From Gammaproteobacteria bacterium (GTDB lineage Bacteria; Pseudomonadota; Gammaproteobacteria; Steroidobacterales; UBA11654), in assembly GCA_029242945.1 (NCBI GenBank), contig JAQWSZ010000004.1:8671-72670 (forward strand): 64,000 nucleotides of DNA, written 5' to 3'. Every line of letters begins with the position of its first letter. Position 1 is the stretch's first letter. Below are positions 15,906 to 61,448 of this stretch, one piece after another. The notes under the pieces are model-generated. The model was not told where the DNA came from, searched no databases, and was given only the letters and a program-made list of their open reading frames with translations. Both the position numbers and the translations under genes were made by a program.

Positions 15906-16316
15906 TTAGTCGTCTAAGCCATAAATTCTATAGTGATTGGGTTTTAATACACCTAGACTTGTTTTTTCAATCGATAGTTCACGTTTCATTGTCTCAAGTC
16001 GTTCTTTACCAAAAGCTAGGAGTATCATTTCATTCCACATGTCATGTGCTTCTTTATCATGCCTAATATCCACCGTACCCCAAACGATAATATGGTCCAT
16101 TTCAATTGCTTTGCATATAGAAACACAAGCTCTTGGATCTCTTTCTAGATTTCTTTTTTTTTGTTTACCTGTAAAACTAAACAATAGTCCTTGTTCATGT
16201 ATGCCCATCATTAATGGAGTTACATGAGGTCCTCCATCAGGACCAATAGTTGAGAAATGAACCCAATCTAATGGGTTATGAATTTTTTTTAAAGCTTCGA
16301 CTAATGTTTCATCCAT
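15906..16316 (-). CDS. Pyridoxamine-5'-phosphate-oxidase-like (split-barrel FMN/F420-binding) protein
   Basis: 136 aa. FSTIGPDGGPHVTPLMM...KKRNLERDPRACVSI pattern typical of PNPOx-like proteins. Confidence 0.7.
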   Translation of the reverse strand: MDETLVEALKKIHNPLDWVHFSTIGPDGGPHVTPLMMGIHEQGLLFSFTGKQKKRNLERDPRACVSICKAIEMDHIIVWGTVDIRHDKEAHDMWNEMILLAFGKERLETMKRELSIEKTSLGVLKPNHYRIYGLDD

Positions 16317-40515: not shown

Positions 40516-41985
40516 ATGGAAAATCTGAAAGTAGGAATTAGTGGATTAGCAACGTACGTGCCACCATATCGAGTTGATCTTGAGCAATGGTGTCAATGGT
40601 CTGATAATTCATGGGATAAAATAAAAAATATCGTTGGTTCTGGTTTCAGAGTTTTAGGACCTAACCAAACAATATATTCAATGGCGGCAAACGCAGTTCT
40701 TGATCTTATATTATCTCATGAGGTTAGCCCCTCAGAAATAGGATATTTAGCACTAGGTACTGAGTCAAGTACTGATAATTCTGCAGGATCTATCATTATC
40801 AAGGGTATGGTTAATGAAGAATTAAGAAATAGAAAAATGGATACCATTTCAACTCGATGTGAGGTCCCAGAGTTCAAACAAGCATGCTTATCAGGTATTT
40901 ATGCTATGAAGAGTGCTGTTCGCTTTATTAAAACAGATGCACCTACTTTGAAAGCAATTGTTGTTTGTTCCGACATTGCTCTTTATCAAATAGGAGCTAG
41001 TGGAGAACCCACTCAGGGAGCAGGGGCAATTGCTACTCTTATTGAAAAAGATCCAAAAATTGCTGAAGTTAGAACAGAAATCTCAGGTACATCATCTGAT
41101 TATCGTTTATTGGATTTTAGAAAGCCAATACAGTATAGGGCTAAACAATCAAACGACCACTCTGATTTTGATATTGATTTACCAATATTTAATGGTAAAT
41201 ATTCTTCATCTTGTTATATAGATGAAACCATTGCAGCAATTGATGACATGGTAGAAAAAAGAAAAATAGATTCAGCTGAATATCTTAGGAATATTAGTGC
41301 TGTATTTCTTCATAGACCATTTCATAAAATGCCTATCACTGCTTTTTCAATCGTTTATTTGCATGCCTTAGCGCATGGCAACAAAGATGATAAAAAGGAA
41401 TTAGAGGGTTATGCACTAGTCTCCAATGTAAATTATGAAGAGCTCATTGGTGAATTAATTAATAGGGTAAATGTCTCAGAATTTGCTCATAATGATGTTA
41501 ATTCGGATTTTCTTCCTCTATCTAATAGGGTAATTAAGACAATCAAAGAGAATGATCAATTCCAAAATAATGTTTTAGCTAAGATAGAATTTGGGAGTTC
41601 ACTAACAATGGAAATGGGTAATATTTATTCAGGTTCTGTGTTTGGATGGCTTGCTGCAGGAATAGAGGATGCAATAAATAAAGACATTGATTGGTCAAAT
41701 AAAGAGGTTCTATTATTTGGCTATGGCAGTGGCGATGCAGCAGAAGTGATACCACTTATTTTTACAAACGATTGGAAAGAAGCATCAACTAAAACTAGTT
41801 TTTCTAATGCATTTAAAGATCAATACAATTTAAGTCATCAGCAATATCTTACTTTAAGAACAGAAAAAACAACTAATGGAATTGATTTTAAGTTAAAAAA
41901 TCAATTCATTGTTAAAAGAATAGGAACAGAAGAAAGGGATGATTTTCAGGATGCTGGAATAGAGTATTACGAATACTTAAATTAG
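40516..41985 (+). CDS. Hydroxymethylglutaryl-CoA synthase family protein (long, 489-aa form)
   Basis: HMGS catalytic blocks: GTESSTD (Glu), KQACLSGIYAMKSA (Cys), LHRPFHKMP (His), GNIYSGSVF (Asn/Ser). Confidence 0.75.
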   Translation: MENLKVGISGLATYVPPYRVDLEQWCQWSDNSWDKIKNIVGSGFRVLGPNQTIYSMAANAVLDLILSHEVSPSEIGYLALGTESSTDNSAGSIIIKGMVNEELRNRKMDTISTRCEVPEFKQACLSGIYAMKSAVRFIKTDAPTLKAIVVCSDIALYQIGASGEPTQGAGAIATLIEKDPKIAEVRTEISGTSSDYRLLDFRKPIQYRAKQSNDHSDFDIDLPIFNGKYSSSCYIDETIAAIDDMVEKRKIDSAEYLRNISAVFLHRPFHKMPITAFSIVYLHALAHGNKDDKKELEGYALVSNVNYEELIGELINRVNVSEFAHNDVNSDFLPLSNRVIKTIKENDQFQNNVLAKIEFGSSLTMEMGNIYSGSVFGWLAAGIEDAINKDIDWSNKEVLLFGYGSGDAAEVIPLIFTNDWKEASTKTSFSNAFKDQYNLSHQQYLTLRTEKTTNGIDFKLKNQFIVKRIGTEERDDFQDAGIEYYEYLN

Positions 41986-45987: not shown

Positions 45988-46350
45988 ATGAACAATAAAG
46001 AGCATGCTCTGACTCAAAAGTTAGATGAATTAGGCGTTGATAAAATAAAGAGACATATTTTTCTTTGCGCTGATCAGACAGAAGCAAATTGTTCTCCATA
46101 TAAAAAGACAATGGAGTCGTGGGATTTTTTAAAGCAGCGTTTGAGTGAACTTAATCTTGATACTAAAGGAGGTATCTTTCGCTCTAAGGTTAACTGCCTA
46201 AGAATTTGTTCGCATGGCCCTATTGCGGTTGTTTATCCTGAGGGTGTTTGGTATAAAAAATGCACTCCTGTAGTCTTAGAAAAAATTATACAAGAGCATT
46301 TAATTTCAGGTCAACCAGTCGAAGAATTTATTATTTCAAAGCCGAATTAA
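45988..46350 (+). CDS. Thioredoxin-like [2Fe-2S] ferredoxin family protein
   Basis: 120 aa. [15 protein letters not shown] ... [20 protein letters not shown] Cys pattern. Confidence 0.7.
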
Positions 46351-48430
46351 GTGTTTCCAGGTAATAGGTTTCTTTTGCTCTTTGAATTAAATAAGCGTGT
46401 ACATCTTTTGCATCCTGTTCGGAGATTTTATCAGCAAAACTGACCATACCTTTGTTTGTATATAGACCACCTAGAGTGATTGCTAAAAAATTATCATGAG
46501 TTTTTTTATTCATGTATCGCAGGTCTGCAATAACTCCACCTCCCATTGCACCAGCACCATGACACATGTGGCATTGATAATGATAAATTTTTTCACCATT
46601 AGCAATTGAGGCTTCATCACCCATTGATTTAGGAGGTTTTGGCATGACTTTATCAGCTATTCTTTTTGGTAGTTGTTGTTTTGCATTTAAGGCAAATGTA
46701 ACAATTCGACCATTGATGGGACCACCTGAGTATTTAGGTGCTAAACCTGCTTGTAATGCAAATACTCCTCCATATCCAGCAACAACACTTAAGTATTGTT
46801 TACCATTAATGGAATAGGTAATAGGAGGAGCAACAATACCTGTTTGGAGATCATAAGACCAAAGTTGATCTCCAGTTGTGGCATTGTAAGCTACTAGTTC
46901 ACCATCGGATGTACCTTGAAATACTAAATTACCAGCAGTGGATAAAACACCTCCATTCCATGGCAGTGTTTGATATTTCTTCCAAACTTCCTTCTGTGCA
47001 ATAGGGTCCCATGCACTGAGTCGTCCTCTAATACTTTTTATAACTAGATTAAGCTGTAATAGATTTTTAGGCGGTATAATTGCTGATAAGTCTATACCGG
47101 TATTCCAACTGTCTTTTTTAAAGGTATATTCTTTATCTTTTTCAAACGGTAAATAGAGTTCTTGAGCAGGGATATATACCAATCCAGTGTCTGGATTATA
47201 TGACATAGGCATCCAGTTGTGACCACCAAGTGCTCCTGGTGATACTAACCGATCTTCTGTTTCATAATCACCCAAGGGGATCTTATTAGGTTTTCCTGTT
47301 TTAATATCAACCCCATTAGCCCAAGTGACTCTCACATAATTTTCTGCTGAGATTAATTCTCCAGTTATTCGATCAATAACATAAAAGAAACCATTTTTTG
47401 GAGCTTGCATTAATATTTTTCTGTTTTCACCATCAATCATTAAGTCAGCCAAAATAATATGTTGTGTTGCCGTATAATCCCAATTATCTCCTGGAGTTGT
47501 TTGATAATGCCAAACGTATTCTCCGTTATCAGGCCGAAGGGCAACAATGGAAGATAAAAATAAATTGTCTCCTCCATCTGGACTTCTGACTTTATAATTC
47601 CATGGAGAACCATTGCCAGTTCCAACATATAAAAGATCCAATTCAGGATCATAAGCCATTGAATCCCAAACAGTGCCACCACCCCCATATTCCCACCAAT
47701 TTGATCCACTCCATGTAGAAGCAGCAAATTTCATAGCCTCATTCTCAAAGCCATCTTCTGGATTTCCCGGTACAGTATAAAATCTCCAAATCATTTTACC
47801 TGTTTCAGTATCGTAGGCACTGACATAGCCTCTGACTCCAAAATCAGCTCCGCCATTGCCAATAATAACTTTACCTTTAATAATCCTTGGCGCACCTGTG
47901 ATGCTATAGGCATTAGAATCTTCAACTGTGGTTTTTTCCCATATTAATTCACCACTAGTTGCATCCAATGCTATAAGTCTTCCGTCTAGTGTTCCAAGAT
48001 AAATTTTACCCTCCCATATAGCCACACCTCGATTGACTGCATCACAACATAGATAGTAGGCCTTTTCTCTAGGTACTTGTGGGTCGTATTTCCATATGAG
48101 TTCACCAGTTGAGGCATCATTAGCGAAGACGACACTCCAAGCACCTGTTGAAAACATAATGCCATTTACAACTAGTGGTGTTGATTCATGACCGCGACTA
48201 CTATCTAAATCATGAAACCATTCAATACCTAATTGATTTACATTGTTTTCAGTAATTTGATTTAAACCACTGAATCGTTCTTCACTGTAGGTTCTTCCGT
48301 GAGTTATCCATTCTTCTTGATTGGACTTGGCTCCATTAATTTTCTCAGCATCAATATTAAAATCTGAAGCAATAGTTATATTGGTCACTAAGCCCAATAA
48401 GAATAGGTGTATTATTTTTGAATCCATCAC
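46331..48430 (-). CDS. PQQ-dependent quinohemoprotein alcohol dehydrogenase (type II, fused C-terminal cytochrome c domain)
   Basis: 699 aa. Signal peptide, propeller W-motifs, vicinal CC ([11 protein letters not shown]), C-terminal heme motif CHMCHG. Its 3' end overlaps the convergent ferredoxin gene by 20 nt. Confidence 0.9.
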
Positions 48431-55395: not shown

Positions 55396-55824
55396 ATGAT
55401 TATCAGGAATAAAAACTATCTTTTAGTAATCTTAGCGATCTTATTTTCTAGCATTGCATTTGATATTGTTGCTGATGACTATAAACGTGGTGAAGTTTCT
55501 ATTACTAGTCCATTGGATGGTGAAATTGTCAGCCAAACCTTCAGAGTTGTGTTTGATATCAAGAATTTTGATTTATCTCCTGCAGGTACCTTTGATGAGA
55601 ATACAGGACATCATCATTTAATTATTGATGCAGCATTACCAAATTTAAATTCTCCAATTCCAAGTAGTGCTAATTATCTACATTTTGGCAAAGCCCAGGA
55701 GTATGCAGATATTACGTTAGCTCCAGGTAAGCATACCCTACAGCTATTATTGGGCGATGGAAATCATATTCCTCACAAAAAACCCATATTTTCAAAACCA
55801 ATTGAAATTAAAGTCAAACCCTAG
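55396..55824 (+). CDS. Secreted DUF4399-domain protein
   Basis: Signal peptide from the Met at 55396. The GHHHLIID block is characteristic of DUF4399. Confidence 0.6.
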   Translation: MIIRNKNYLLVILAILFSSIAFDIVADDYKRGEVSITSPLDGEIVSQTFRVVFDIKNFDLSPAGTFDENTGHHHLIIDAALPNLNSPIPSSANYLHFGKAQEYADITLAPGKHTLQLLLGDGNHIPHKKPIFSKPIEIKVKP

Positions 55825-56623
55825 TTGGCAGTTCTATATCTATTAAAAATTCATCTAAAAGTTTGACAGTTAATTGTGTATCAAGTTCTGGAGAAGCAAT
55901 CAGTGTTTTTCCTAATCTTGCAATTCTTGCAGATGGTATATCTTTCTTAATAGTTTCTAATTTATCAATAAAAAAATCATTAACTGCTGACATCACCAGA
56001 ATAGGGCACTTAACTTGACGAAGAACATCAGCAAAGTCTTGCTCTTTTAGAGAGGCAAAGGCTTGATTTCTTCCGTCTATAGATCTTAAGCCTCCAATGA
56101 GTTCTGAATTAACCAAGGTTTCATCAAAAATTGGAAAAAGACTTTTAATAAGAGCAAAACGTTCATGTAGGTATTTACCAGCAGTATCTGGTTTTGGAAC
56201 TGGTTTAAAACTTTTAAAAAATAGTTCTCTTTCATTCTTTGAGAAATAAGCTGCTCCATTTAAAGTCATTGATATTACCCTCTTAGGCCACAGCAATGCT
56301 ATTTCAGCTGCAAAGTGTGTGCCTGTATGATGTGCATAAATATGAAAGAGATCAATATTTAGAGCATCTATAGCTTCACAAAGCCAGTCTCTATAATGAT
56401 TAATACTTGGCATTGCTTCAGGGTCAAAAGAGTTACCAAATCCAGGTGTATCAATTGCATAAATTGGTCTTTTGCCTCTAAATTCATACATCATTCTTTC
56501 ATACATTACAGAGCTGCTAGGAGTTCTATGAAATAGAACGAGCGGTATTCCTATGCCTTCAGAGTATCTATAGTGTATTTGTCCTGAATTGATGTTGATG
56601 TAGGATTTTTTTATTTCTACCAT
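55814..56623 (-). CDS. Alpha/beta-hydrolase-fold protein with an atypical nucleophile elbow
   Basis: 269 aa. Abhydrolase layout (…PLVLFHRTPSS…, DTPGFGNS). The elbow reads Y-A-H-H-T-G-T (His where Ser/Asp is expected). Confidence 0.65.
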   Translation of the reverse strand: MVEIKKSYININSGQIHYRYSEGIGIPLVLFHRTPSSSVMYERMMYEFRGKRPIYAIDTPGFGNSFDPEAMPSINHYRDWLCEAIDALNIDLFHIYAHHTGTHFAAEIALLWPKRVISMTLNGAAYFSKNERELFFKSFKPVPKPDTAGKYLHERFALIKSLFPIFDETLVNSELIGGLRSIDGRNQAFASLKEQDFADVLRQVKCPILVMSAVNDFFIDKLETIKKDIPSARIARLGKTLIASPELDTQLTVKLLDEFLIDIELPTRV

Positions 56624-56735: not shown

Positions 56736-57305
56736 ATGATGAAAAAAAGAATAATTATAGGTATATCAGGAGCGAGTGGCGTTATTTATGGAATACGTTT
56801 GCTTCAGGTATTGAAAGATGATCTAGAAATTGAAACGCATTTAGTTTTGACTAAAGGTGGAAAACTTAATATTACGCTTGAAACTGATTTTGATATTAAA
56901 TCAATTGAGGCTATGGCAGATGTAGTTCATAGCGACAAAAATCTAGGCGCCAGTATTGCTAGCGGTTCATTTCAAACATTGGGGATGATTATTGCACCAT
57001 GTTCGATGAAAACACTATCTGGCATAGTTAATTCATATGCCACAAATTTAATTGTAAGAGCCTCTGACGTTATTTTAAAGGAAAGCAGACAACTTATTAT
57101 AGTACCAAGAGAAACGCCTCTGCATACAGGGCATTGTGAATTACTATATAAAGCTTCAGTGATGGGTGCTCATATTGTTCCACCAAATCCTGCTTTTTAT
57201 AATAATCCTGAATCTTTAGACGACATTATTAATCACACAGTGGGGAGAGTTTTAGATTTGATGGGTCTAGATAATGATATTGTTTCTCGATGGGATGGTG
57301 TTTAA
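56736..57305 (+). CDS. ubiX: UbiX-family flavin prenyltransferase (prFMN synthase)
   Basis: 189 aa. IIIGISGASGVIYGIRLL, IAPCSMKTLSGI, PRETPLH blocks. Confidence 0.9.
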   Translation: MMKKRIIIGISGASGVIYGIRLLQVLKDDLEIETHLVLTKGGKLNITLETDFDIKSIEAMADVVHSDKNLGASIASGSFQTLGMIIAPCSMKTLSGIVNSYATNLIVRASDVILKESRQLIIVPRETPLHTGHCELLYKASVMGAHIVPPNPAFYNNPESLDDIINHTVGRVLDLMGLDNDIVSRWDGV

Positions 57306-57312
57306 TTCGAGA

Positions 57313-57831
57313 ATGGATGGTAGCACTTCAGTTGATGATTTACTCACCAAAGTTAAATTATTATTAACTTCACATAATACAATCTCTATTGCTTCAACCC
57401 AGGAAAAGAAAGTATCAGCGGCAAGTGTTTTCTATGTATCCGATACCAATCTAAATATTTATTTTCTTTCTTTTGATAAAAGTACCCACTCAAAAAATAT
57501 TTTTAAAAATAGAAATATAGCCGCTACCATCAATAAGGATGTTGAGGATTGGTCAGATATTAAAGGGCTTCAAATTAAGGGATATTCAGAGAAGCTAGAT
57601 ATACATCAAAGAGAAGAAGTACTTAATAGATACAAAAGAAAGTTCAAATACTTGGATCAAATTATAAACGCACCTAAAAATAGTAATGAACAAAAAATAG
57701 CAGAACAATTCCAAACAATCAGTGTTTTTGTTTTCACTCCAATCTTTCTTAGGTTAATTGATAATTCTCTAGGGTTTGGAAAAAAGATGGAGTTAACACG
57801 TGCAAATGGAGAATGGTTAAGAACCAGTTGA
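57313..57831 (+). CDS. Pyridoxamine-5'-phosphate-oxidase-like split-barrel flavoprotein
   Basis: Starts 7 nt after the ubiX stop (MDGSTSVDDLL...). The pattern ...TISIAST...VSAASVFYV.D.NLNIYFLS...S.HSKNI..N.NIAATI....D...IKGLQIKG is typical of the PNPOx/GSP26 family. Confidence 0.55.
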   Translation: MDGSTSVDDLLTKVKLLLTSHNTISIASTQEKKVSAASVFYVSDTNLNIYFLSFDKSTHSKNIFKNRNIAATINKDVEDWSDIKGLQIKGYSEKLDIHQREEVLNRYKRKFKYLDQIINAPKNSNEQKIAEQFQTISVFVFTPIFLRLIDNSLGFGKKMELTRANGEWLRTS

Positions 57832-57847
57832 CGATAAACTAAGTCAA

Positions 57848-58633
57848 TTACTCTCCACTGGAGTAAGCGGGTAATGTTCCTAGATGAACTCCACTATCCA
57901 TAATAAGAACCTCACCTGTTATTAGTTTTGCACCTTCAAGAAACCAAATTAAGGTTTCCGCAACATCCTCAGCAGTTGCTACCTCTTGTAGAGGTAGTTT
58001 TTTTCTTGACCCTTCAAGCATATTCTCATAATTCTCTTTGCTCATACCATCTTTGAGCCAACGAGTTTGAATCATTCCTGGAGCAACACTGTTAATACGA
58101 ATCTCAGGGCCAAGAATATGAGCTAATGATTTCGTCATCATATTTAATGCAGCTTTTGATGAAGCATAAGCAATGGATGAACCTATACCTGTAACACCAG
58201 CAAGAGACGAATCATTCACGATTGCGCCTTTTCCTACTTTTCTCATATGAGGTTCTACAGCTCTTACCATTTGATAGGCTCCCACTACATTTACGGCATA
58301 AATGTCCAGAAAGTCATCTTTAGTCAGTCCATCTAGATTTGAAAAGGCATTGAATTTTGTTTTGCCAGCATTATTAATCAAATAATCAATTCTTCCCCAT
58401 TTATCGACTGCAGCCTTAGCCATAGATTGACAATCATCATCATTGGATACATCACCTTGACATACCAAAACTTCAACTCCTTGTTGTTCAGCTAGTAAGG
58501 CAGTTTCTTTTGCTTCTTTTTCACTTCGAGTGTAATTAATAACAACATTACATCCTTTTTTGGCTAGTAAAATTGCAGCAGCAGAACCTACTCCTGTTGC
58601 TGATCCAGTGACTATTGCTACTTTTCCTTTCAT
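57848..58633 (-). CDS. Short-chain dehydrogenase/reductase (FabG-like)
   Basis: 261 aa. TGSATGVGSAAA cofactor motif, NNAG, catalytic S...YASSK. Confidence 0.9.
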   Translation of the reverse strand: MKGKVAIVTGSATGVGSAAAILLAKKGCNVVINYTRSEKEAKETALLAEQQGVEVLVCQGDVSNDDDCQSMAKAAVDKWGRIDYLINNAGKTKFNAFSNLDGLTKDDFLDIYAVNVVGAYQMVRAVEPHMRKVGKGAIVNDSSLAGVTGIGSSIAYASSKAALNMMTKSLAHILGPEIRINSVAPGMIQTRWLKDGMSKENYENMLEGSRKKLPLQEVATAEDVAETLIWFLEGAKLITGEVLIMDSGVHLGTLPAYSSGE

Positions 58634-58802
58634 TTGGATTCCTGATTTAAATAAGATTGTTAGTTATTTTATAGATTACTGGAAATAAAATCTTAATTTT
58701 GATGACTGATTTTCAGTATTAGATTTAATACAGCATAAACAATTACTCATAAATGTATTAAGATACTTCTAATTTAGTGTAGTTTTTTTAGAGGAGACAA
58801 CA

Positions 58803-60299
58803 ATGGTTTTTAATGACATGAGAGATTACATCCAGCACTTAAGAGATCGAGAGCAGCTGATAGATGTGAATACTGAATTGAATGTGGCTAGGGAAACTAC
58901 TGAACTGCAGCCATTGATGAGACATTTGCATAATATTAATGGCCCAGCACTTATGCTAAATAATTTGTCTGGGTATAATACTAATGATATCCCTGTTTTA
59001 TTTAACCCCTATGGTACGAGAGAAAGAACTTCTATGATTCTGGGGGAAGAGGGTGCGTTTGACGGGAAAGTTAAACATGCGAGCGTTCTGACTAATCCGT
59101 CCAGTTGGCTTAAACCAAATTGTATTGATTCATCATCAGCTTCCTGTAAAGATGTTAAAATTGAGAAAAAAGACATCAATATTGGTAAGCAAATCCCTCA
59201 TGTATGGTTTGGGAAAGAAGGACCTTCTTATATTACCAATGCCATCGTCATTACTAAAGATCCAGAAACTGGTATCCCAAATACAGGATGTTACCGATTA
59301 ACACAATTGTGGAATGCATCGCATCCAAATGGTGAAGTTTATTCTGAAGAAGAGCAGAGACAATGCCTTTCTATTTTTGCTTTCTGGAACCCACCTGGAA
59401 ACCATATCGGCTTACATTGGGCTAAAGCGCAAGAAATGAATAAACCACTAGAGGTTGCTATAGCTTGCGTTGTCGATCCTGTCATACAATTGGCCAGTGC
59501 CACTGGCATACCTTTCGGCTTAGATGAAATGGATTTTGCAGGTGGTTTGAGAGGCAAACCTGTTGATGTTGTTAAATGTGAAACTGTTGATATTGAAGTC
59601 CCAGCCACTGCAGAATGGGTTCTTGAGGGTAAATTTCTTCCCAATAGAGATGTTACAATAGGTCCTCATTCCAATCCTGTTGGTTATTATGATGATGCTC
59701 AGTTATTTCCTTTGATTGAATTGGATTGCATTACACACAGAAAGGATCCTATATGGTATGCCACAATGGAAATGGAACCTCCATTTGATCATAATTACAT
59801 GGCTTGCCTTCCCATGGAAGGAGAACTATTGAGTGATTTACAATCTAAGATACCAGAAGTTAAAGATGTTGTTGTTACTCCAAATCTTAGTTATTTTATA
59901 CAACTGTCTGTGGATGGGCCTCAAAAACCTCATCCAGAATTTGGTAAGCATGTGCTCCATGCTGTCTGGGGAGCTAGCGGTAGATGGGGTAGAACAGCAA
60001 AAGTGATAGTTGTTGTTGGCCCTGACGTTAATCCCTATGATCTATCAGAAATTGAATGGGCTATTCAGACAAGAGTTCAACCAATTACTGATACTATAAT
60101 GAATAAATCAGGACAAGCATTCTTGATGGATCCATCGGCACCAAAGGATCCAGGCCATGGAATTGCACTTCAGTCTGAGCAGATTGGTATCGATGCTACG
60201 ATAAAAGTTTTTGAGCGTTTTACCTCTTACCCAGAGTACAGTAATGCAAAACCTGAGGATGTTGCTCTTATTGCAGAGAAGTTAAAAGATATTTTTTAG
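58803..60299 (+). CDS. UbiD-family (prFMN-dependent) decarboxylase homologue, atypical active-site motif
   Basis: 498 aa. MRDYIQHL...N-terminus, NTGCYRLTQ (G.YR), DEMDFAGGLRGKPVDVVKCETVDIEVPATAEWVLEG, then IGPHSNPVGYY in place of the usual EGPFGE/DxxGYY. SD agaggaga upstream. Confidence 0.9.
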   Translation: MVFNDMRDYIQHLRDREQLIDVNTELNVARETTELQPLMRHLHNINGPALMLNNLSGYNTNDIPVLFNPYGTRERTSMILGEEGAFDGKVKHASVLTNPSSWLKPNCIDSSSASCKDVKIEKKDINIGKQIPHVWFGKEGPSYITNAIVITKDPETGIPNTGCYRLTQLWNASHPNGEVYSEEEQRQCLSIFAFWNPPGNHIGLHWAKAQEMNKPLEVAIACVVDPVIQLASATGIPFGLDEMDFAGGLRGKPVDVVKCETVDIEVPATAEWVLEGKFLPNRDVTIGPHSNPVGYYDDAQLFPLIELDCITHRKDPIWYATMEMEPPFDHNYMACLPMEGELLSDLQSKIPEVKDVVVTPNLSYFIQLSVDGPQKPHPEFGKHVLHAVWGASGRWGRTAKVIVVVGPDVNPYDLSEIEWAIQTRVQPITDTIMNKSGQAFLMDPSAPKDPGHGIALQSEQIGIDATIKVFERFTSYPEYSNAKPEDVALIAEKLKDIF

Positions 60300-60326
60300 T
60301 ACTGCATTTAATTACAGTTAAAAATG

Positions 60327-60355
60327 AAAAAAAGGCCCAATATTTGGGCCTTTTT
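60327..60355. terminator. Bidirectional rho-independent terminator between convergent genes
   Basis: AAAAAAA-GGCCCAA-TAT-TTGGGCC-TTTTT. A-tract and T-tract flank a 7-bp GC-rich stem. Confidence 0.85.
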
Positions 60356-60375
60356 AATTAAAAAATCTTTATTTT

Positions 60376-60981
60376 TTACATAAAGAAACCATGACCAGCA
60401 CCAACCATACTCATTAACATGGGTATTGATAGCATAGTGTTAGTTCTTGAAGCTAGAAATGCTATTCTAGCACCTTTGGCTTTTTCCTCTGGCGTTGCTT
60501 CAACAATACCAAGAACTTTCTTTTGATTAGGCCAAATGAGAATCCACACATTAAATAACATAATAGTTCCCATCCAAGCACCTATACCAATCGTAGTAGC
60601 ATAAGGATTACCGGTTCTCATACCCAATTCAAAGGCATCTCCTAAGTTACCATTATGTAATAAGAAAGCCGCACCTGAAATCCAGGTTAATAGAGCTGCC
60701 CAACGGAACCATAGCAATGCTCTTGGGGCTACATATTTTGATATTGCCGCTGGACCTGGTCCACCTTCATCTGCATTTGCTTCAGCTACAGATGGAACTT
60801 GAACAAAATTAAAATAGTAAAGCAACCCTATCCAAGCAACACCAGCTAAAACATGGATCCAAATGATTAATGAATTTGCAGCATTAGCACCTGAAAGATC
60901 AGTTCCTTGTGCTATCAAAACAGCAATGACAACTCCTGAAATAATTGTCCCTGTTATTTTATCTAATAGTTTCATTTTCAT
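60376..60981 (-). CDS. Integral membrane protein resembling the membrane domain of PuuD-type urate hydroxylases (no cytochrome c domain)
   Basis: 201 aa, about 5 TM. The block HVLAGVAWIGLLYYFNFVQVP is what I associate with that family. Assignment from memory only. Confidence 0.45.
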   Translation of the reverse strand: MKMKLLDKITGTIISGVVIAVLIAQGTDLSGANAANSLIIWIHVLAGVAWIGLLYYFNFVQVPSVAEANADEGGPGPAAISKYVAPRALLWFRWAALLTWISGAAFLLHNGNLGDAFELGMRTGNPYATTIGIGAWMGTIMLFNVWILIWPNQKKVLGIVEATPEEKAKGARIAFLASRTNTMLSIPMLMSMVGAGHGFFM

Positions 60982-61136: not shown

Positions 61137-61448
61137 ATGGATATAAATGAAAGAATTAAAACTCAATTAAGCGAGTTCCCTTTATTGTTATATATGAAAG
61201 GCACACCTGATTTTCCTCAGTGTGGATTCTCAGCGAAAGTATGTGGAATACTGAAAGCTTCTGAAAAACGATTTGCGTTTGTTAATATTTTAGAGGATCC
61301 AGAAATCAGAGATGGATTAAAAACGTATTCAAATTGGCCAACTTTTCCACAACTATACATTAACGGTGAGCTTGTGGGTGGGTGCGATATTATTGAACAA
61401 ATGTTTGATAATGGTGAATTAAAAACACTACTTGATAATTTAGAATAG
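61137..61448 (+). CDS. grxD: Monothiol glutaredoxin (Grx4/GrxD)
   Basis: 103 aa. CGFS active site, WPTFPQLYINGELVGGCDI. Confidence 0.95.
   Translation: MDINERIKTQLSEFPLLLYMKGTPDFPQCGFSAKVCGILKASEKRFAFVNILEDPEIRDGLKTYSNWPTFPQLYINGELVGGCDIIEQMFDNGELKTLLDNLE

Follow-up and report, generated by a model that had tools for sequence, protein, structure and literature searches.

A UbiX-linked gene module around a UbiD-family enzyme with an altered catalytic loop in marine Gammaproteobacteria

Introduction

Enzymes that depend on prenylated flavin mononucleotide (prFMN) are sought as catalysts of reversible (de)carboxylation with which to fix CO2 or make alkenes, and in the characterised members of the UbiD family (de)carboxylation is taken to require a catalytic E-R-E network, formed in Fdc1 by E277, R173 and E282. 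In the archaeal mevalonate pathway, phosphomevalonate dehydratase, of the aconitase superfamily, is paired with anhydromevalonate-phosphate decarboxylase, a UbiD-family enzyme, and with UbiX. The subject of this paper is a four-gene module on contig JAQWSZ010000004.1 of a gammaproteobacterial assembly (GCA_029242945.1), within a stretch of 64,000 nucleotides hereafter called the window, where genes for UbiX, for a split-barrel protein related to YhbP of Escherichia coli, for a short-chain dehydrogenase/reductase (SDR) and for a UbiD-family protein lie side by side. The UbiD-like protein keeps the putative cofactor ligands of its family and has lost both acidic residues of the catalytic loop, and we hold, with about even confidence, that the module encodes a self-contained, uncharacterised prFMN enzyme system and not the ubiquinone decarboxylase.

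The UbiD enzyme of E. coli (EcUbiD) cannot mature its own cofactor (PMC13040415, PMC10865409), and no chaperone has been identified for it according to the paper describing LpdD, a chaperone that binds prFMNH2 and activates a UbiD enzyme (PMC10865409). PhdC is a dedicated maturase of HpaC-like split-barrel fold that converts the prFMN radical into the iminium form by oxidation and makes EcUbiD about 10-fold more active in vivo; its distant homologue YclD has a similar activating effect, and PhdC homologues have been reported from Actinomycetota only (PMC13040415). A preliminary description of the present locus, drawn from the sequence, had named small BsdD/VdcD-type subunits, and neither a split-barrel flavoprotein nor an SDR, as the accessories known from such clusters; with PhdC a split-barrel accessory has a precedent, and YclD and LpdD are further activators of UbiD enzymes. 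The module is laid out as follows:

56736-57305, + strand: ubiX, 189 aa
57313-57831, + strand: gene for the YhbP-like split-barrel protein, 172 aa
57848-58633, - strand: SDR gene, 261 aa
58634-58802: AT-rich divergent spacer of 169 nt between the SDR and UbiD-like genes, read from the sequence
58803-60299, + strand: UbiD-family gene, 498 aa
59658-59675, + strand: codons of residues 286-291 (I-G-P-H-S-N) of the UbiD-like protein, placed by HMMER alignment

The four reading frames are all present in the open reading frame (ORF) listing where they had been described, the gaps (7 nt after ubiX, 16 nt up to the convergent SDR gene, 169 nt across the divergent spacer) read as stated, and the calls of UbiX, SDR and UbiD families hold in Pfam and NCBIfam scans. 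The GC content of the window is 30-38% throughout, and its proteins recur verbatim in marine metagenome-assembled genomes (MAGs) at NCBI and on more than 100 metagenome contigs, Tara samples among them.

An altered active site in the UbiD-like enzyme

All three UbiD Pfam domains are found above cut-off in the product of 58803-60299, which also passes the family model TIGR00148 (273.7 bits, cut-off 244.85). In the HMMER alignment its residues I286-G-P-H-S-N291 stand opposite E-G-P-F-G-E of HmfF and E-G-P-Y-G-D of EcUbiD; both acidic loop residues of the E(D)-R-E network are replaced and Arg165 is kept. The altered motif had been noticed before, and to this can be added that the replacement is itself conserved, since among 203 family members the Ile recurs in 196, the Gly and the Ser in all, the His in 202 and the Asn in 201. 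The putative cofactor and metal ligands located by alignment are equally constant (N160 in 203 of 203, H205 in 201, E242 in 203), and the catalytic Arg is invariant or nearly so in the same set; in Fdc1 the Mn2+, K+ and prFMN-phosphate ligands are N168, H191 and E233. Intact prFMN ligands together with a near-invariant I-G-x-H-S-N loop therefore argue for a selected alternative catalytic apparatus rather than a decaying gene. When cluster representatives of 1.84 billion proteins were compared, more than 40% identity to the UbiD-like protein was reached by about seven clusters only, and these alone lack both loop Glu and carry the loop His and a PPFDH motif, nearly all others having E-G-P-F-G-E or a close variant; we refer to proteins with the replaced loop as HSN-type and to their group as the HSN clade.

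The best surviving alternative, although unlikely, is that the protein carries out prFMN chemistry other than decarboxylation (isomerisation, hydration, cycloaddition or redox coupled to the SDR) or binds prFMN without catalysis. Replacement of both Glu by residues that are themselves invariant would fit such a role, as would the presence of a tightly linked NADP(H) enzyme, unusual for UbiD systems, and the essential standing of the E-R-E network, of which the Fdc1 variants E277Q and E282Q are among the structures matched. Retention of Arg165 and of the entire cofactor site argues the other way, as do the invariant His, which sits in the loop position where an acid/base is needed, and the fact that the known members of the family are all (de)carboxylases.

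Family placement and the ubiquinone pathway

No model of a characterised UbiD enzyme that was compared accepts the UbiD-like protein: it scores 156.1 bits against canonical UbiD (PRK10922, cut-off 788), with 27% identity to EcUbiD, 221.8 against VdcC/BsdC (cut-off 650), 193.5 against the MqnL-type menaquinone decarboxylase SCO4490 (cut-off 495.9), 77.3 and 109.3 against the alpha and beta subunits of phenylphosphate carboxylase, PpcA and PpcB (cut-offs 564.6 and 468.95), and 107.7 against BagN/FevL (cut-off 1000). The predicted fold (pLDDT 75) matches HmfF, VdcC, UbiD, AroY and Fdc1 in Foldseek with TMq of about 0.7, and by sequence and predicted fold the nearest solved proteins are HmfF, EcUbiD and ShVdcC, with weak sequence matches in the PDB to PhdA-like 6da6 (E 2e-24), AroY (E 5e-22), Fdc1 (E 2e-19) and HudA (E 2e-18). 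More than 1,700 homologues were found, at about 60% identity across Gammaproteobacteria MAGs, and on plasmids of cultured bacteria none exceeded 30% identity. The earlier suspicion that this is no housekeeping ubiquinone enzyme is supported by the PRK10922 score and the distance from EcUbiD, and the suggestion of a possibly uncharacterised system by a clade that holds no characterised member. Public annotation calls the UbiD-like protein 4-hydroxy-3-polyprenylbenzoate decarboxylase and the SDR 3-oxoacyl-ACP reductase; judged from the sequences, both names are probably wrong.

A ubiquinone role for the module is nevertheless the next alternative to be weighed, in which the HSN-type enzyme would be the lineage's UbiD for 3-polyprenyl-4-hydroxybenzoate, served by ubiX and the YhbP-like protein, with the SDR a bystander. 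The public name, a single-copy UbiD-like gene with housekeeping-like conservation (about 60% identity across the clade), the adjoining ubiX and the position of E. coli yhbP about 1 kb from ubiT-ubiU-ubiV all speak for it, as does the failure to find a canonical ubiD in the window or across about 1.6 Mb from related loci. It is made improbable by the profile score far below the canonical cut-off, by an identity to EcUbiD of 27-32%, by the loss of both catalytic acids that EcUbiD keeps in E-G-P-Y-G-D and by an SDR which ubiquinone synthesis does not need and which is the most conserved partner; paralogues, moreover, stand in catabolic-looking clusters, and ubi genes adjoin the module neither in the window nor in any of the 82 related loci described below. 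A canonical ubiD nearby was sought by BLAST of EcUbiD against the window and the ORFs of all fetched loci (about 1.6 Mb; the rest of the genomes lay outside the scope), and the candidate was dropped when the HSN-type gene was the only match.

UbiX and the YhbP-like protein

By sequence the product of 56736-57305 is unambiguously placed as a UbiX flavin prenyltransferase (PF02441 E 2.7e-41; PRK06029 255.1 bits, cut-off 188; TIGR00421 225.4 bits, cut-off 108.9). The ORF listing offers an earlier alternative ATG, at 57274, for the split-barrel gene that follows; since 19 aligned homologues begin at the equivalent of 57313, the gap between the two genes is 7 nt (TAA ttcgaga ATG). The preliminary label of the second protein as PNPOx-like is upheld by its YhbP profile match and split-barrel fold, but it is weaker than was implied, as no Pfam family matches. 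The YhbP model PRK03467 gives 59.6 bits, below its equivalog cut-off of 176; hhalign aligns the protein with E. coli YhbP at a probability of 98.6 and 26-31% identity, with a common C-terminal DNxLGFG motif, and on this alignment the protein is placed as a homologue of E. coli YhbP, in the YhbP/UPF0306 family, despite the sub-cut-off score. Its AlphaFold2 model (pLDDT 84.8, pTM 0.80) has 141 Foldseek matches in the PDB at E <= 1e-3, PNPOx, PhzG, HugZ and HutZ among them, with TMq of 0.6-0.7. Sequence similarity to PhdC was not found: single-sequence and profile searches of the PDB (E <= 10) returned PNPOx-like proteins only, and PhdC is absent from the 50 best fold matches of the model.

Across the 82 related loci the YhbP-like gene is present in 42, and in 39 of the 40 that hold both genes ubiX immediately precedes it in the same orientation, the gap being mostly -4 to +41 nt, an arrangement that probably reflects translational coupling. 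An orthologue of ubiX lies within 10 kb of the UbiD-like gene in 51 of the 82. Where the UbiD-like protein is below 70% identity, median identities are 64% for UbiX and 35% for the YhbP-like protein.

The association reaches beyond the HSN clade. Metagenome contigs scanned with the alignment of the window protein yielded 41 more distant homologues of 27-37% identity, and in 16 of these a ubiX or UbiD-family gene lies in the fetched flank, directly adjacent in 13; by our own estimate, assuming one to three UbiD genes per genome, chance would give such linkage in well under 1%. The UbiD genes near these distant homologues are of other subfamilies, phenylphosphate-carboxylase-like ones for example, and encode the canonical loop E-G-P-F-G/S-E; the idea of YhbP-like proteins as partners specific to the HSN clade was rejected on that account. 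A partner common to UbiX and to varied UbiD subfamilies most plausibly acts on the cofactor they share, and the YhbP-like protein would therefore most plausibly handle prFMN, as a maturase or a chaperone. The earlier proposal that it supplies FMNH2 or takes part in maturation is favoured as far as a role at the level of the cofactor goes, but the tie is to UbiX/UbiD systems generally and not to this clade.

A literature search found no paper that addresses the function of YhbP. In E. coli MG1655, yhbP lies about 1 kb from the genes for O2-independent ubiquinone synthesis, ubiT-ubiU-ubiV (locus L093, 3299472-3303367), and the flavin reductase gene fre follows ubiD by 45 nt (L097, 4026527-4027228); as hints at a cofactor role these positions are suggestive only.

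The SDR and the divergent spacer

The SDR matches adh_short_C2 (E 1e-54), and its motifs (TGSATGVGS at 9-17, R36 in NYTRS, NNAG at 87-90, N115, S142/143 and Y156-x3-K160) mark it as a complete SDR of the classical type, for which R36 suggests a preference for NADP(H). All 25 top NCBIfam equivalog models stay below their cut-offs (FabG TIGR01830 172.3 bits against 297.75), and the closest solved relative is a 'putative SDR' without a name. An orthologue is found in 68 of the 82 loci, divergent from and adjacent to the UbiD-like gene in 51, with a median identity of 70.5% where the UbiD-like protein is below 70%; it is the best-conserved member of the module.

The spacer from which the two genes diverge holds a Shine-Dalgarno sequence (AGAGGAG) for the UbiD-like gene and a box, TTATTnTATAGnTTA (about 58653-58668), that an alignment of 8 spacers shows to be kept across the window's clade while the flanking spacer has otherwise diverged; the box could be an operator or a -10 region. 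No Rfam family matches the spacer. Over the whole module an Rfam scan (E <= 1) gave sub-threshold matches on the terminator only and no riboswitch or leader, and a promoter scan gave no excess over the expectation from shuffled sequence.

Conservation of the neighbourhood

A pattern scan with one genome per species yielded 571 stretches confirmed as relatives by tblastn, of which the best 80 are 60-95% identical; the census of the neighbourhood comprises 82 related loci of 35-73% GC from at least 80 species-level genomes, with a median UbiD-like identity of 62.7% over all 82. All 80 scan loci are from Gammaproteobacteria MAGs, with labels that include Woeseia/Woeseiaceae, Chromatiales and Ca. 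Foliamicus. Conservation of the ubiX-PNPOx-SDR-UbiD neighbourhood in relatives, proposed earlier as a check, is borne out (of 82 loci, 68 have the SDR, 51 ubiX and 42 the YhbP-like gene), and as the four-gene linkage is kept from 35 to 73% GC, chance adjacency fails as an explanation. Other neighbours vary freely from locus to locus, among them pilus genes, the his operon and transposases, and the module may itself be rearranged and still linked: in L049 the SDR is found downstream, and in 16 loci of the Foliamicus type it lies beside ubiX, an acyl-CoA synthetase and a hotdog thioesterase flanking the UbiD-like gene. One contig carries two UbiD-like paralogues; near one lie ubiX and an SDR orthologue (68% identity), and just ahead of the other (L096) stands a YhbP-like gene. 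Elsewhere the contexts are those of small-molecule metabolism, with acyl-CoA synthetase and thioesterase, Rieske oxygenase, old yellow enzyme (OYE), major facilitator superfamily and GntR genes.

Two unusual contexts deserve separate mention. The paralogues just named (L095/L096, ena:ERZ25039600:contig_31426, 149 kb) are both HSN-type and stand about 30 kb apart among several DUF1838 proteins, alpha/beta hydrolases, an OYE-type reductase, an enzyme of the xanthine dehydrogenase family, an aldehyde ferredoxin oxidoreductase and an iron-dependent alcohol dehydrogenase, a region whose gene content looks like a catabolic island. In L001/L034 (OZ244928.1, 4950-9494) and in L052 the orthologous SDR is missing, and the order is a Rieske/VanA_C/PCP_red oxygenase with a weak SdmA-like match, an unrelated SDR (27% identity), a 143-aa protein and the UbiD-like gene; this order hints that a methyl group may be oxidised to a carboxylate that is then removed. 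A link to tetrapyrrole or chlorophyll catabolism, raised by RCC_reductase and a PAO-like Rieske gene beside two relatives, was dropped, being confined to single lineages and without NCBIfam support.

The downstream genes of relatives and the phosphonate link

Further metabolic genes come after the UbiD-like gene, on its strand, in 44 of the 82 loci. Their enzymes are an ApbA-like reductase, the large and small subunits of a LeuCD/DmdAB-type dehydratase, a methylisocitrate-lyase-like (PrpB-like) protein and a PhyH-family dioxygenase, together with a phosphonate part made up of phosphoenolpyruvate mutase (PepM) fused to a nucleotidyltransferase, phosphonopyruvate decarboxylase (Ppd), a 2-aminoethylphosphonate (AEP) transaminase and a further nucleotidyltransferase. 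At ORF level, about 10-60 nt separate the UbiD-like gene from an ApbA-like or PepM gene that comes immediately after it. PepM is present in 24 related loci; PepM, Ppd, ApbA and the two dehydratase subunits (AcnL/S) exceed their model cut-offs, the AEP transaminase falls just below, and the PrpB-like and PhyH-like proteins lie below. Two deeply separated clades share the link and differ in the intervening genes. In the sister clade of the window PepM begins 17 nt after the UbiD-like stop and is followed by about 9 kb of AEP-decoration genes (TagF-like, sulfatase-type transferase, YidC-like) up to a PF06181 gene; in other clades the ApbA, LeuCD-like and PrpB-like genes come before those for phosphonates.

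L009 and L013-L021 (e.g. L014:11508-20677) and L003:9557-17497: phosphonate islands of relatives, absent at window 60300-60375

By tblastn, no gene for PepM, Ppd, AEP transaminase or the aconitase-like proteins is present in the 64-kb window, and in the window and five of its closest genome relatives (L007, L008, L010-L012) a terminator takes the place of the island, which in this lineage is either lost or never inserted. The phosphonate link is real in relatives and absent in the window, and is therefore dispensable for keeping the module. The gene content of the relatives suggests unsaturated polyacids, aconitate-like or phosphonomethylmaleate-like, as candidate substrates.

A more specific reading would have the LeuCD-type dehydratase make an unsaturated phosphonate acid, such as 2-phosphonomethylmaleate, and the UbiD-like enzyme decarboxylate it, in that case to 2-(phosphonomethyl)acrylate, in parallel to the archaeal mevalonate pair of dehydratase and UbiD enzyme, with the SDR or the ApbA-like reductase finishing the product. 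LeuCD-like enzymes make phosphonomethylmaleate in pantaphos biosynthesis, and the same-strand genes in about half of the loci, the above-cut-off assignments, the recurrence in two distant clades and the replacement of two Glu by neutral residues and His, which would suit a polyanionic substrate, could all be brought together in this way. The reading has little likelihood: the window and the five close relatives just named keep the module at 83-95% identity without phosphonate or aconitase-like genes nearby, such genes are also missing from the Foliamicus-type loci, the PepM-Ppd-AEP transaminase set is complete for surface decoration with AEP (Glyphos_transf, sulfatase-type transferase) and needs no decarboxylase, and no phosphonomethylmalate synthase was seen. 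A literature search found no paper linking UbiD to phosphonates.

That common descent within a single gammaproteobacterial lineage is what keeps the four genes together, the SDR and possibly also the YhbP-like protein working elsewhere, would accord with the origin of all 80 scan loci, with the synteny of an unrelated PF06181 membrane protein, Grx4 and NadC over part of the clade and with the separate transcription of the SDR, but is the least probable reading, since other neighbours change while the four genes persist from 35% to 73% GC, their linkage is re-created in differing orders and the tie of YhbP-like genes to ubiX or UbiD recurs in unrelated UbiD subfamilies.

A proposed function and its significance

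In the self-contained prFMN system that we propose, UbiX would make prFMNH2, and the YhbP-like protein, translated right after it, would bind the flavin product and either oxidise it to the iminium form or hand it over, in the manner of PhdC, YclD or LpdD; linkage and fold point to this step. The UbiD-like enzyme would bind prFMN through the conserved Asn160, His205 and Glu242 and use Arg165. Because both Glu of the E-R-E network are lost, it must use another acid/base, most likely His289 with Ser290, Asn291 and the PPFDH motif, or else the substrate itself. The enzyme is expected to (de)carboxylate, reversibly, an acid that is small, soluble and strongly anionic, either alpha,beta-unsaturated or heteroaromatic, and the SDR, NADP(H)-dependent and expressed from the divergent spacer, would reduce or oxidise a carbonyl or alcohol on the substrate or product, as its tight linkage suggests.

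A broader and more tentative claim, to which we lend clearly less confidence, joins two statements: that the YhbP/UPF0306 family is a widespread, unrecognised group of prFMN maturases or chaperones, the E. coli YhbP encoded beside ubiTUV included, and that the HSN clade is a prFMN enzyme with a His acid/base and an NADPH-dependent SDR acting on a polyanionic unsaturated acid, possibly a phosphonate intermediate from a LeuCD-type dehydratase.

Several points weigh against the proposed system. Loss of both catalytic Glu could mean chemistry other than decarboxylation. The YhbP-like protein evolves fast, at 35% identity where its partners hold 62-71%, its gene is missing from the 16 Foliamicus-type loci, and its sequence bears no detectable similarity to that of PhdC; the split-barrel fold is also found in heme-binding and F420-dependent proteins, so that binding of flavin or prFMN remains putative. 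Given the restriction of the scan loci to Gammaproteobacteria MAGs, descent rather than selection could account for part of the synteny, and because the window is without aconitase-like and phosphonate genes, the substrate suggested by the neighbours of its relatives may not apply to it.

The kind of system, UbiX with UbiD, and the type of accessory, a split barrel, are already known; what is new is a large UbiD clade, abundant in marine and sediment Gammaproteobacteria, with a rewired active site, in which the catalytic Glu pair is exchanged for a conserved alternative, and with a linked SDR. The locus bears on cofactor maturation for enzymes unable to self-mature, such as that of E. coli, and on the catalytic reach of the family, and it ties the YhbP family, which is also present in E. 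coli, to UbiX/UbiD systems of several subfamilies. If YhbP is a maturase, this would explain how UbiD enzymes that do not activate themselves, EcUbiD included, come by an active cofactor, possibly without O2, and if the HSN enzyme acts as outlined, it would represent a new class of prFMN reaction and a new branch of phosphonate metabolism, the operon link in relatives pointing to a concrete candidate substrate class. The probable misnaming of the UbiD-like and SDR genes could also distort surveys of the distribution of the ubiquinone pathway.

Surroundings of the module in the window

The module is bordered by two further features:

55814-56623, - strand: alpha/beta-hydrolase-fold gene, divergent from ubiX (Abhydrolase_1 E 2.9e-9)
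60329-60355: bidirectional intrinsic terminator, a hairpin with flanking A/T runs

The strong bidirectional terminator described earlier after the UbiD-like gene is real: its GC-cored 12-bp stem, AAAAAGGCCCAA/TTGGGCCTTTTT, closes a loop of 3 with T-runs on both strands and serves both the UbiD-like gene and the PF06181 membrane-protein gene that converges on it (60376-60981, -). The latter, a Urate_ox_N-like protein of 201 aa, forms a syntenic pair with a monothiol glutaredoxin (61137-61448, +) and travels with the locus in 27 relatives, the glutaredoxin in 16; both are probably unrelated to the module. The alpha/beta-hydrolase gene occurs upstream of ubiX in the window's own clade only (15 loci, 52-84% identity) and is possibly a clade-specific neighbour and peripheral part of the module. 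As a general member it was rejected for that restriction, the hydrolases near the paralogue L096 not being orthologous. Its nucleophile elbow reads A/G-H-H-T-G-T-H, with His in place of Ser, Asp or Cys in all 15 sequences (the window and 14 relatives), and the protein may be non-canonical or non-hydrolytic.

A Pfam scan of 48 ORFs of the window found no further ubi gene and no mevalonate gene, with one exception. At 40516-41985 (+), 17 kb away and unlinked, a 489-aa protein gives weak but significant matches to the N- and C-domains of HMG-CoA synthase (E 5e-16 and 3e-12), which is unusual in a gammaproteobacterium, where the methylerythritol phosphate pathway is expected; no other mevalonate-pathway gene was noticed among the 48 ORFs scanned. 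About 10 kb from the module lies a pyrroloquinoline quinone (PQQ)-dependent dehydrogenase with a C-terminal cytochrome c domain (46331-48430, -), a counterpart of which (L087:1532-3607) is found near the distant HSN-like homologue P0242, perhaps by coincidence. A second, unrelated PNPOx_N-family protein of 136 aa is encoded at 15906-16316 (-), in a minus-strand run with a lipase-like protein, a zinc-type dehydrogenase, a 637-aa thiamine pyrophosphate enzyme and a CMD-family protein.

Comparison with known systems

Of the described systems, E. coli UbiX/UbiD shares with the module an orthologous UbiX, the three-domain UbiD fold (Foldseek TMq 0.72-0.74), the N/H/E ligands, the catalytic Arg and even a flavin-related helper gene nearby, fre following ubiD directly in E. 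coli. It differs in its loop, E-G-P-Y-G-D against I-G-P-H-S-N at 27% identity, and in its gene order, ubiX and ubiD being unlinked in E. coli and adjoining in the window, where an SDR is the partner and ubi neighbours are lacking. YhbP of E. coli (UPF0306, 'putative FMN binding protein') belongs to the same family as the split-barrel protein and has the same DNxLGFG motif, but its gene stands beside neither ubiX nor ubiD.

HmfF/HmfG, the 2,5-furandicarboxylate decarboxylase system of Pelotomaculum and Cupriavidus, provides the best solved match (6h6x, E 5.5e-47; Foldseek E 3e-33, TMq 0.72, 28% identity), and HmfF is likewise a soluble UbiD enzyme paired with UbiX, its substrate a small dianionic acid. 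HmfF, however, keeps E-G-P-F-G-E, aligns strongly over the C-terminal two-thirds only, and has no hmf genes as counterparts near the module. The aconitase-type dehydratase found beside a UbiD-type enzyme and UbiX in the operons of relatives recalls the archaeal mevalonate pair, as would a phosphorus-bearing anionic substrate, but the dehydratase of the relatives is LeuCD-type and the archaeal one AcnX-type, and the window has no dehydratase gene.

The PhdABC operon of Mycolicibacterium fortuitum combines a UbiD enzyme and UbiX with a small prFMN-handling protein of split-barrel fold (PMC13040415), as the module may do with the split-barrel protein encoded right after ubiX. PhdC, with which YclD shares the conserved Glu47 and Glu136 and an ExW motif, belongs to the HpaC-like branch of that fold, whereas the window protein, a putative counterpart, falls in the PNPOx_N/YhbP branch.

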